Shown: piece after piece, positions 13,475 to 18,715 of the stretch
Position numbering within the stretch: position 1 is the first letter of the stretch
Layout of the letters: every line of letters starts with the position of its first letter
DNA from: Escherichia coli
GTDB taxonomy: Bacteria > Pseudomonadota > Gammaproteobacteria > Enterobacterales > Enterobacteriaceae
Strand: one strand, 5' to 3'
DNA: 64,000 bases
Assembly: GCF_003018115.1 (NCBI RefSeq)
Contig: NZ_CP027457.1
Made by a program: the position numbers and the translations under genes
The notes under the pieces: model-generated
What the model saw: the letters and a program-made list of their open reading frames with translations, nothing else
What the model was told of the DNA's origin: nothing
The model's database searches: none

Positions 13475-16400
13475 ATGGCTTCGACAAATGCGCATCAAAT
13501 AAAAAATAATGATCAAAACTCTTTATGTGGTCTGGGTGACAAAATACGCCGCCTGACCGCCGGAGTTTGTTTATTTACACAAATTTTTTTCCCCGTCATG
13601 GCGACGGCACAAAATGTGGTACATGCTAAACCTCAGACGACAGTTTCATCTGCCCCCCCTCTAATAGAAAATAATACTGTGCCTTACACGCTTGGTGCGC
13701 TGGAATCAGCGCAAAGCGTTGCTGATCGCTTCGGTATTTCACTGGAGGAGCTTCGTCGTCTTAATCAGTTCCGTACTTTTGCTCGCGGCTTTGATAACGT
13801 GCGCCAGGGTGAGGAACTGGATGTTCCGGCAACAACCTCGCAGAAAAGCCATGAGCAACAAAATGCCATACCGCCTGCGAATGGCGAAAACACGCTGGAG
13901 AATCAAATAGCCAGCACCTCGCAGCGAGTTGGCACTCTGCTTTCACAAGATATGAATAGTGAGCAGGCCAGCGGCATGGCGCGTGGTTGGGCGTCTTCAG
14001 AAGCCTCTGGCGCGATGACTGATTGGTTAAATAACTTTGGTACTGCGAAAATCTCTCTGGGTGTGGATGAAGATTTTAGCCTGAAAAATTCGCAATTCGA
14101 CTTCCTGCATCCGTGGTATGACACACCTGATTATCTGCTCTTCAGCCAGCATACCCTTCACCGAACAGACGATCGTACCCAGATCAACACCGGGTTGGGC
14201 TGGCGTCATTTCACCTCCAGCTGGATGTCAGGCATCAACCTGTTTTTTGACCACGACCTGAGCCGCTATCACTCCCGCGCGGGGCTTGGCGCAGAATACT
14301 GGCGTGATTATCTGAAGTTGAGCAGCAACGCTTATATTGGCCTGACCGGCTGGCGTAGCGCACCAGAATTGGATTATGACTTCGAAGCCCGCCCGGCCAA
14401 CGGCTGGGATTTACGCGCGGAAGGCTGGTTACCTGCCTGGCCACAACTGGGGGGAAAACTGGTCTATGAACAATACTATGGCGATGAAGTGGCGCTGTTT
14501 GACAAGAACGATCGCCAAAGTAATCCCCATGCTATTACCGCGGGCCTCAACTATACCCCCTTCCCGCTTCTGACTCTCAGTGCGGAACAGCGTCAGGGGA
14601 AGCAAGGTGAAAATGACACACGTTTTGCCGTTGATCTGACCTGGCAACCCAGCAGTTCAATGCAGAAACAGCTTAACCCGGACGAAGTGGCCGGACGGCG
14701 CAGTCTGGCCGGTAGCCGTTATGACCTGATTGATCGCAACAACAACATCGTTCTGGAATACCGCAAGAAAGAGCTGATTCGCCTGAGTCTGCTGGATCCG
14801 GTGAAAGGGAAGTCTGGAGAAATAAAACCGCTGGTTTCCTCGCTACAGACCAAATATGCCCTTAAAGGCTATAACATCGAAGCCGCTGCGCTGGAAGCTG
14901 CCGGAGGTAAAGTCAGCACGTCTGGAAAAGATATCACGGTCACGCTGCCAGGTTACCGCTTCACTAACACCCCAGAAACCGATAATACATGGTCGATAGA
15001 CGTTACCGCCGAGGATGTAAAAGGTAACCTGTCACGTCATGAACAAAGCATGGTCGTCATTCAGGCTCCGACATTAAGCCAGAAAGATTCTCTGTTATCC
15101 GTTAATCCGCTAACCGTGGCTGCAGATAAAAAATCGACTACCACATTGACCGTTACTGCACACGATTCCGATGGAACCCCGGTGCCGGGGCTGGCGCTGC
15201 AAACCCGCAGTGAAGGCGTTCAGGATATCACCCTGTCTGACTGGACAGATAACGGTGATGGTAGTTACACACAGATACTGACCGCCGGAACGACATCAGG
15301 TTCAGTAACACTGACGCCGCAAATTAACGGTGAGAGTGCGGTAAAAGAATCCATCGTCGTTAATATCGTCCCTGTTGTCTCATCCCGCGACCATTCATCA
15401 ATAACAATTGATAACGTATCGTATTATGCCGGAGACGACATCAAGGTTAGGGTGGAACTGAAAGACGACAGCAATCAACCGGTTGCATATCAAAAAGAGG
15501 AATTGGTAAAAGCCGTTACTGTCGAAAACAGCAAACCTGGCGCCACGATTGTCTGGCACGAAGAGCAGCCGGGGGTTTATGCCGCGAATTATCCGGCCCA
15601 TAAGCAAGGGACTGCACTAAGGGCACAACTTAGCCTTCACAACTGGAATGCTCCACTGCAATCGCATATTTATAACATTGAGGCAAACCAGAATAAGGCT
15701 CGCGTCGCCACATTATCAGCGACAAATAATGACGTTTACGCCGATAAAAAGACATTTAATACCCTCACTATCAACGTCACTGATGAGAGTGATAATCCCC
15801 TGACAAATCATCAGGTCACCTTTAAGAATGAAAAAGGAAGCGCGGAATTTGTCGAACCGCCGCAGCAAAATACGGATGGATACGGTGTTGCCACAATCAA
15901 CATGGTAAGTCAGGTTGCGGAAGAAAATACGATTAGCGCCACGCTGCCAAATGGTTTCTCACAACGGATAATTGCGAAATTCGTTAGCGATTCGAGTACG
16001 CCAAAATTCAAACAACTGGTTGCCGATCCAGATACCATTATTGCTGGCAACAGCCAGGGCAGTACTCTGACCGCCATCGTCACAGACTTTCATAACAACC
16101 CGTTAAAAGATATGAAAGTGAATTTTGTGGCACCTGGTGGCTCGCAACTGGACAACACGACCGCCACAACAGACCAGTCCGGTATTGTGCGGGTGCACCT
16201 GACCAGTTCAAAAGCTGGTAGCTATTCCGTCGATGCCTCGCTTGAGGTGGATAAAAATATTCACCAGTCGGTCACGATCACCGTGGTCCCAAACAGGGAA
16301 CAATCGGTAATGACCTTGAATGCCGGGTCGGGCAGTGCGATCGCTAACAATACAAATACCGCTACCCTGACTGCCAGTGTGAAAGATGTTTATGGACACC

Positions 16401-18715: not shown

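Follow-up and report, generated by a model that had tools for sequence, protein, structure and literature searches.

The window analyzed here is a stretch of 64,000 nucleotides of the Escherichia coli contig NZ_CP027457.1 (assembly GCF_003018115.1). At 13475..18715 on the + strand it carries an intact coding sequence of iatD (5,241 nt, 1746 amino acids), which matches the RefSeq iatD gene encoding protein WP_001719428.1 at 100% DNA identity. The open reading frame (ORF) begins with ATG at 13475, its stop codon ends at 18715, and no interruption is present in between. The start is considered secure because the frame offers no further ATG, GTG or TTG ahead of Met42; in addition, a Shine-Dalgarno sequence (GGAAGG) is found about 6 nt upstream of the ATG. 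No antisense ORF of at least 80 amino acids was found within 13475..18715. Over 13000-19600 the DNA is 100% identical in three complete chromosomes of E. coli (F8111-1SC3, O169:H41 2014EL-1345-2 and NZ_LR882990), for all of which RefSeq gives the gene order yjiJ, iatD (annotated as “inverse autotransporter IatD”), kptA. We are highly confident that this intact ORF represents an allele of iatD, which is a chromosomal gene for an adhesin of type Ve (inverse autotransporter), and that its product is a shorter paralogue of YeeJ.

The gene itself is not new: its name, map position, domain annotation and phenotype all date from 2019. Goh et al. named iatD in strain SMS-3-5 (EcSMS35_4876, 5,241 bp), described its LysM, Big_1 and C-type-lectin architecture, and, for the complete gene, reported a count of 7 among 126 genomes and a share of 10% in the E. 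coli reference (ECOR) collection (PMC6714894). The SMS-3-5 protein has the same length (1746 amino acids), the same position between yjiJ and kptA and the same domain order as the protein from the window; the two align without gaps and are identical at 1707 of 1746 residues (97.8%), so that 39 substitutions separate them, 6 of which are within the C-terminal tip. In O157 Sakai the counterpart is ECs_5290, a “putative invasin” located in S-loop288.

The original prediction for this ORF spoke of an intimin/invasin-family inverse autotransporter in an accessory adhesin locus absent from K-12. Both parts were confirmed. The family is evident from the Pfam IAT_beta match and from the full-length alignment to the barrel structures 4E1T and 4E1S, which are considered below; the accessory nature of the locus follows from the K-12 chromosome, where the stop codons of yjiJ and kptA are 12 bp apart (5,607 bp in the window) with no gene between them, and from the presence of iatD in 638 of 5426 genomes, i.e., in about 12% of the complete genomes of this species (97-100% identity, constant gene length). 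The domain searches named in the prediction as capable of refuting it detected both the barrel and the immunoglobulin (Ig)-like repeats by Pfam, and in the proposed comparison with YeeJ, FdeC and the Iat proteins the gene is iatD, a paralogue of yeeJ.

The protein starts with a predicted long Sec signal peptide (residues 1-45, 13475..13609, +). As read from the translation, it consists of a K/R-rich n-region and a hydrophobic stretch LTAGVCLFTQIFFPVMATA followed by a likely cleavage site between ATA and QN; it aligns with the N-terminus of YeeJ. Residues 66-118 (13670..13828, +) constitute a periplasmic LysM domain. For the single IatD sequence, the Pfam LysM match has E=0.06 to 0.008 (the latter for the segment alone); however, homologous segments pass the same search at E<=0.001 in 5 of 9 cases. 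A profile of the segment retrieved from the PDB, designed-repeat artefacts aside, natural structures of LysM domains exclusively (4UZ2, 8I2E, 8RHE, 2MKX and 1E0G). Moreover, the segment shares 90% identity with the LysM domain of YeeJ, for which peptidoglycan binding was observed in a pull-down experiment (Martinez-Gil et al. 2017, PMC5595812). These three lines of evidence substantiate the N-terminal LysM motif that had been proposed.

The inverse-autotransporter beta-barrel with its linker occupies residues 148-440 (13916..14794, +). Pfam places IAT_beta (PF11924) at residues 148-423 with E=4e-107, which agrees with the predicted barrel region, and the crystallised barrels of invasin (4E1T, E=2e-82) and intimin (4E1S, E=2e-66) can be aligned over their whole length with residues 185-430. 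The conserved linker motif RYDLIDRNNNIVLEY is present in the linker part of the barrel region, and the alignment to 4E1T and 4E1S takes in RYDL(I/V)DRNNNIVLEY. The topology is inverted: the barrel is N-terminal (residues 148-440), and the Ig modules with the tip are C-terminal (residues 441-1746). An AlphaFold2 single-sequence model of residues 45-550 (LysM, barrel and the first Ig module) had a predicted local distance difference test score (pLDDT) of 31 and was discarded; the question was settled by the PDB profile search and by the identity to YeeJ.

The barrel is followed by a passenger rod of Ig-like modules (residues 441-1543, 14795..18103, +), which was delimited by Pfam, by a search with a self-built profile and by the match to the FdeC structure. 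Nine strong modules of the Big_1 type (Big_1/Invasin_D3) are found at residues 540-631, 746-836, 847-937, 946-1041, 1052-1138, 1151-1238, 1244-1336, 1347-1437 and 1448-1543; together with one Invasin_D4 module (approximately residues 1564-1624), they were detected at E<0.001 by Pfam and the self-built profile. A further module at residues 643-725 is weak (independent E-value 0.004). In the segment immediately after the barrel (residues 441-536), neither Pfam nor the self-built profile detected an Ig module; we presume a D00-like module here, the segment being within the alignment of the NCBIfam intimin profile (residues 152-530) and 64% identical to the corresponding part of YeeJ. Considering that residues 643-725 give a weak signal and residues 441-536 are aligned by the intimin profile and YeeJ, 10 modules are firm, and the probable number is about 12. 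More than ten Ig-like repeats had been expected; ten of them are certain at the above threshold, and the wording “more than ten” is plausible but strictly unproven.

The FdeC structure 4E9L was matched at E=1e-33, all matches being on the module at residues 540-631; a sequence search of the PDB gave no match for residues 441-536 or for the weak module at residues 643-725. The modules have diverged from each other, and no DNA tandem repeats were found in iatD. Variation in the number of repeats was considered for this gene and rejected, since it is devoid of DNA tandem repeats.

The protein ends with a tip superdomain (residues 1544-1746, 18104..18712, +), in which an invasin-D4-like Ig module precedes a C-type-lectin-like domain (CTLD) at approximately residues 1639-1746. 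The distinct Trp-, Tyr- and Gly-rich C-terminal domain of the original prediction is clearly recognizable from composition: the last 186 residues (1561-1746) contain 3.2% Trp, 5.4% Tyr and 10.8% Gly compared to 0.4%, 2.4% and 6.4%, respectively, in the Ig rod. The mature protein has only two cysteines, Cys1660 and Cys1742, both in the tip and nearly invariant in an alignment of 66 tip sequences; they are predicted to form a disulphide pair. The phmmer alignment of residues 1510-1713 with the invasin D4-D5 domains (1CWV, E=1e-9) superimposes Cys1660 on Cys907 of invasin.

The AlphaFold2 model of the tip, obtained with the 66-sequence alignment, has a pLDDT of 96 and a predicted template modelling score (pTM) of 0.87. 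In the Foldseek comparison of the model with the PDB, the best match is invasin 1CWV (E=1e-12, TM 0.75) and the next one intimin 1F00 (E=4e-7); snake-venom C-type-lectin-like proteins come after these with a probability of 1.0. Thus, the tip is confidently modelled as an Ig plus C-type-lectin-like superdomain of the invasin D4-D5 type. When 1.84 billion representative proteins were searched exhaustively, the tip module was found in 260 clusters, nearly always at the extreme C-terminus; this search supersedes a word-index search that gave only 5 proteins. At 50% identity the IatD tip is alone in its cluster, and its closest relatives are YeeJ-like and 48% identical.

Given such a fold, one may ask if the tip genuinely acts as a lectin that binds carbohydrates. 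The C-type-lectin-like fold with its matches to CTLD structures and the abundance of Trp and Tyr speak in favor of this; however, the EPN/QPD and WND motifs of Ca2+ and sugar binding are absent from residues 1631-1746, invasin and intimin, which are nearest in structure, have protein ligands, and the best CTLD matches are snake-venom proteins of the protein-binding type. We consider genuine sugar binding very improbable. Of the lectin-like C-terminus proposed earlier, the fold is retained according to the model and Foldseek, and the sugar-binding motifs are missing.

Among the known systems, YeeJ of K-12 (Martinez-Gil et al. 2017, PMC5595812) is built on the same plan: signal peptide, LysM, barrel, Big_1 rod and CTLD tip. 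The overall amino acid identity is 49%, and it decreases along the protein from 90% in LysM and 86% in the barrel to 64% in the first three Ig modules and about 40% in the distal rod, with 46% in the tip; at the DNA level, bases 199-1994 of iatD are about 77% identical to yeeJ. YeeJ differs in being about 600 amino acids longer due to extra Ig modules and in its locus, which adjoins asnT; yeeJ is subject to repression by pnp. Another relative is IatC, for which a LysM domain and a CTLD cap are reported as in IatD, but its length is 2,459-2,965 amino acids and its locus is different (PMC6714894). The NCBIfam model of the IatC N-terminus is matched by the N-terminal 838 residues of IatD with 1124.6 bits against a cut-off of 2400.

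Invasin of Yersinia pseudotuberculosis (4E1T, 1CWV) has the barrel, the D4-D5 tip and the disulphide position in common with IatD; unlike IatD, it lacks a LysM domain, and its Ig modules number only 4. Intimin (Eae; 4E1S, 1F00) of enteropathogenic and enterohaemorrhagic E. coli (EPEC and EHEC) is similar in the barrel, the fold of the tip and the LysM-containing periplasmic domain; it differs in the short passenger, in being encoded in the locus of enterocyte effacement and in having the dedicated receptor Tir. The NCBIfam intimin model gives 355 bits on IatD, which is below its cut-off of 1400. The Big_1 modules of FdeC/EaeH (4E9L) are homologous to those of IatD, as indicated by the E-value given above. 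No LysM domain or CTLD cap is reported for FdeC; Goh et al. give these for YeeJ, IatC and IatD alone (PMC6714894).

Considering this architecture, the following mode of action can be proposed. The long N-terminal signal peptide would direct export via Sec; the LysM domain, judging from its identity to that of YeeJ, would anchor the protein to peptidoglycan in the periplasm. The barrel, which by alignment is homologous to the 12-stranded barrels of intimin and invasin, is expected to enter the outer membrane, the linker threading the C-terminal passenger outwards as is known for the family. The rod of about 12 diverged Ig-like modules would then display the disulphide-bonded tip, which according to the model is of the invasin D4-D5 type with an Ig module and a CTLD. 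The adhesion or biofilm assays after overexpression that had been suggested for this protein are already published for the SMS-3-5 allele: when overexpressed in K-12, IatD was surface-exposed by immunofluorescence and caused strong biofilm formation, but neither autoaggregation nor binding to extracellular matrix (ECM) proteins (PMC6714894). Expression of YeeJ likewise promotes biofilm (PMC5595812).

Several points weigh against this description of the window protein as a displayed, biofilm-promoting adhesin. Two of the approximately 12 Ig modules are inferred and were not detected by search, and with a single sequence Pfam gives the LysM domain a weak score (E=0.06). Biofilm formation was observed upon overexpression driven by isopropyl thiogalactoside (IPTG) in a heterologous K-12 host, and the natural role may differ. 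Finally, no significant native promoter signal was found.

It is reasonable to ask if the main role of IatD is host-cell adhesion or invasion through a protein receptor recognized by the tip, as in the invasin-integrin and intimin-Tir pairs, biofilm formation being a side-effect of overexpression. The fold shared with invasin D4-D5 and intimin D2-D3 supports this idea. The position of the tip in its own 50%-identity cluster, 48% identical to the nearest relative, is compatible with a distinct specificity, and a gene similar to an effector of the type III secretion system (T3SS) adjoins at the locus. Integrin binding by invasin of Y. pseudotuberculosis reportedly depends on Asp911 with the synergy residue Asp811 (work attributed to Hamburger et al. 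1999 and the Isberg laboratory). In the phmmer alignment, these residues correspond to Asn1664 and Ala1564 of IatD, which argues against the same mode of binding; the register is validated by the Cys907-Cys1660 correspondence, but it is uncertain in the loop, where Asp1665 adjoins. Other evidence against host adhesion includes the missing binding to ECM proteins (PMC6714894), the frameshift of iatD in the major O157:H7 pathogen lineage and the fact that no receptor is known. In our opinion, host adhesion as the main role is possible but rather unlikely. A tip subtype with neither the integrin residues of invasin nor the sugar motifs of lectins makes its ligand worth finding.

The frameshift occurs at a short homopolymer. 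In the window, a run of seven cytosines (C7, 13653..13659, +) is in frame and covers codons 60-62 (A60-P61-P62), situated after the signal peptide and before the LysM domain. Sakai and EC4115 have C8, which puts the signal peptide out of frame with the rest of IatD; the EC4115 copy is designated as “frameshifted” by the Prokaryotic Genome Annotation Pipeline (PGAP). A frameshift is also present in the O145 strain RM9873-C1, where the run is C6; its near-twin RM9872-C1 matches the window exactly over the full 94 bp around the run (93 bp in RM9873-C1). In alleles of the SMS-3-5 type the run is interrupted, with TCCGTCCCC where the window has C7. The alleles were counted as exact matches among 614 genomes matching the 94-bp segment: the Sakai-type C8 is found in 284 of the 614 (46% of carriers), the window-type C7 in 79 genomes and C7 in the O157 background in 21. 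The latter 21 comprise all O55:H7 strains listed, SF O157 493/89, LSU61 and about 10 typical O157:H7 genomes; all serotyped genomes among the sampled C8 matches are O157:H7. Strains with C7 include F8111-1SC3 and ATCC 11775. Intact iatD is present in roughly 6% of complete genomes, which agrees with the “complete gene” figure of Goh et al., who mention neither an iatD frameshift nor O157 (PMC6714894).

The simplest reading is that C8 arose by mutation at a site prone to slippage and was passed on within the O157:H7 lineage. It is tempting to propose instead that expression of iatD is phase-variable, with slipped-strand mispairing at the poly-C run switching it between ON (C7) and OFF (C6 or C8). 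Display of IatD would then be stochastic in the run-bearing group (the window, O145 and O55/O157) as opposed to SMS-3-5-type alleles with the interrupted run; most O157:H7 would be OFF (C8), and occasional revertants would be ON. This is consistent with the three run lengths among genomes, with the occurrence of both C7 (21 genomes, about 10 of them typical O157:H7) and C8 (284) in the O157-type background, and with the one-base difference at the run between the near-twins RM9872-C1 and RM9873-C1. On the other hand, C8 is nearly fixed in all major O157:H7 lineages and resembles a single inherited mutation; 7-8 cytosines are few for high-frequency slippage; the window has no excess of C/G runs of at least 7 (3 observed and 4.2 expected); and minority alleles could be produced by homopolymer errors in long-read assemblies. 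The interrupted run of SMS-3-5-type alleles is a further argument against the switch, which we regard as doubtful, and the same applies to the ON/OFF distribution outlined for the above strains.

A frameshift shared by nearly half of the sequenced carriers matters wherever iatD serves as marker, antigen or colonization factor in EHEC. In the older Sakai annotation (NC_002695.2), the start of ECs_5290 was set at an ATG within the gene, 139 nt downstream, without the signal peptide, and the frameshift was thereby masked (locus 6140-11242). The Sakai annotation also has a hypothetical gene ECs_5289 on the + strand where other genomes have kptA on the opposite strand (locus 11573-12058).

The frequent frameshift brings up another explanation, namely, that iatD is a cryptic accessory gene, mostly silent and in decay, which is being lost by mutation, the intact copy in the window having little current function. 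This is in line with the carriage in only about 12% of genomes, with the C8 frameshift in 46% of carriers and the independent C6 frameshift, with the AT-rich upstream region and with the narrow distribution: no close IatD orthologue was found in representative genomes of other species by a pattern-based contig scan, which could miss some. The two best matches outside E. coli are short contigs of metagenome-assembled genomes labelled Collinsella sp. and Bacillota bacterium; they carry enterobacterial inverse autotransporter genes without the yjiJ/kptA context, one of them has a LysM segment almost identical to that of K-12 YeeJ, and both are probably mis-binned. Against decay, the ORF is intact in the window and in about 330 other genomes of diverse lineages, its identity of 97-100% and its unchanging length point to purifying selection, and the expressed protein is secretion-competent and functional (PMC6714894). 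We consider this explanation unlikely and retain the interpretation of iatD as an intact adhesin gene.

The upstream intergenic region (13265..13474, +) has a GC content of 34.8% compared to 49% for iatD. This composition is the only support for a possible silencing of iatD by H-NS. Consensus matches to promoters and terminators near iatD were no more common than in shuffled sequence. Downstream, between the convergent genes iatD and kptA, there is a perfect stem-loop with an 11-bp stem (18733..18762) and no U-tract; the RNA fold of 18716-18790 has an energy of -27.2 kcal/mol (z = -5.9), and the stem-loop is likely a transcription stop or an RNA-stability element. It is followed by an element at 18764..18852 resembling repetitive extragenic palindromic (REP) sequences, which in inverted orientation has a 78% match to K-12 4569923-4570013, an intergenic repeat between rpnD and yjiR. 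No Rfam families were found at 8000-20000.

The gene was initially described as inserted between yjiJ and kptA. The position is correct; however, iatD is the right end of a divergent 10.4-kb haplotype and not a simple insertion. The bounds of this alternative haplotype (8467..18870) were determined by comparing the window with K-12 by blastn and following the identity in a sliding profile. To the left of 8466 the backbone is about 95-99% identical to K-12. The segment 8467-11181, with a gene for a 700-residue pentapeptide-repeat protein (35% GC), has no K-12 counterpart; yjiK and yjiJ at 11182-13242 are divergent alleles with 81% nucleotide identity; at 13243-18870 (the final 22 nt of yjiJ together with iatD and the adjoining intergenic regions) a counterpart is again missing; and from 18871 onward, including kptA, the identity is about 98%. 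At the protein level, the identity to K-12 is 90% for YjiJ, 84% for YjiK, 98% for KptA and 100% for YjiH. The yjiK/yjiJ allele is found at 90% identity or more in about 640 genomes; 8467-18870 behaves as one haplotype because this count is nearly equal to the 638 genomes with iatD. No insertion sequence (IS) element, integrase, or direct or inverted terminal repeats were found at the haplotype ends, and a self-mobile island was therefore rejected. The fact that iatD travels with an EspX-family effector-like gene in an ancient haplotype of 10.4 kb has a bearing on how the locus was acquired.

The effector-like gene, similar to espX6, is located at 8805-10907 (+). Its product of 700 amino acids is 84% identical to Sakai ECs_5295, and in O157 the gene is annotated as encoding the T3SS effector EspX6. 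The length of the product varies between strains (657, 700 or 735 amino acids). The gene contains a 24-nt tandem array at 10589-10820 and then a C8 run at 10799-10806.

Some other features of the window deserve mention. The identical RefSeq genome lists the gene fimD for the type 1 fimbrial usher (32550-35187, -) as frameshifted, the remaining fim operon (about 30572-39325) being intact; the strain may therefore be without type 1 fimbriae. A degraded island at 42686-48188 adjoins a tRNA-Leu gene (48104-48188) and contains a gene for a hypothetical protein of 678 amino acids, a frameshifted gene for a phosphorothioated-DNA-binding restriction endonuclease and partial genes for an HNH endonuclease and a sialate O-acetylesterase. 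Finally, a gene for an Rpn-family recombination-promoting nuclease (2231-3165) is annotated as frameshifted, and rpnD is a pseudogene in K-12 as well; the gene coincides with a local dip to 81% in identity to K-12 at 2001-2500.

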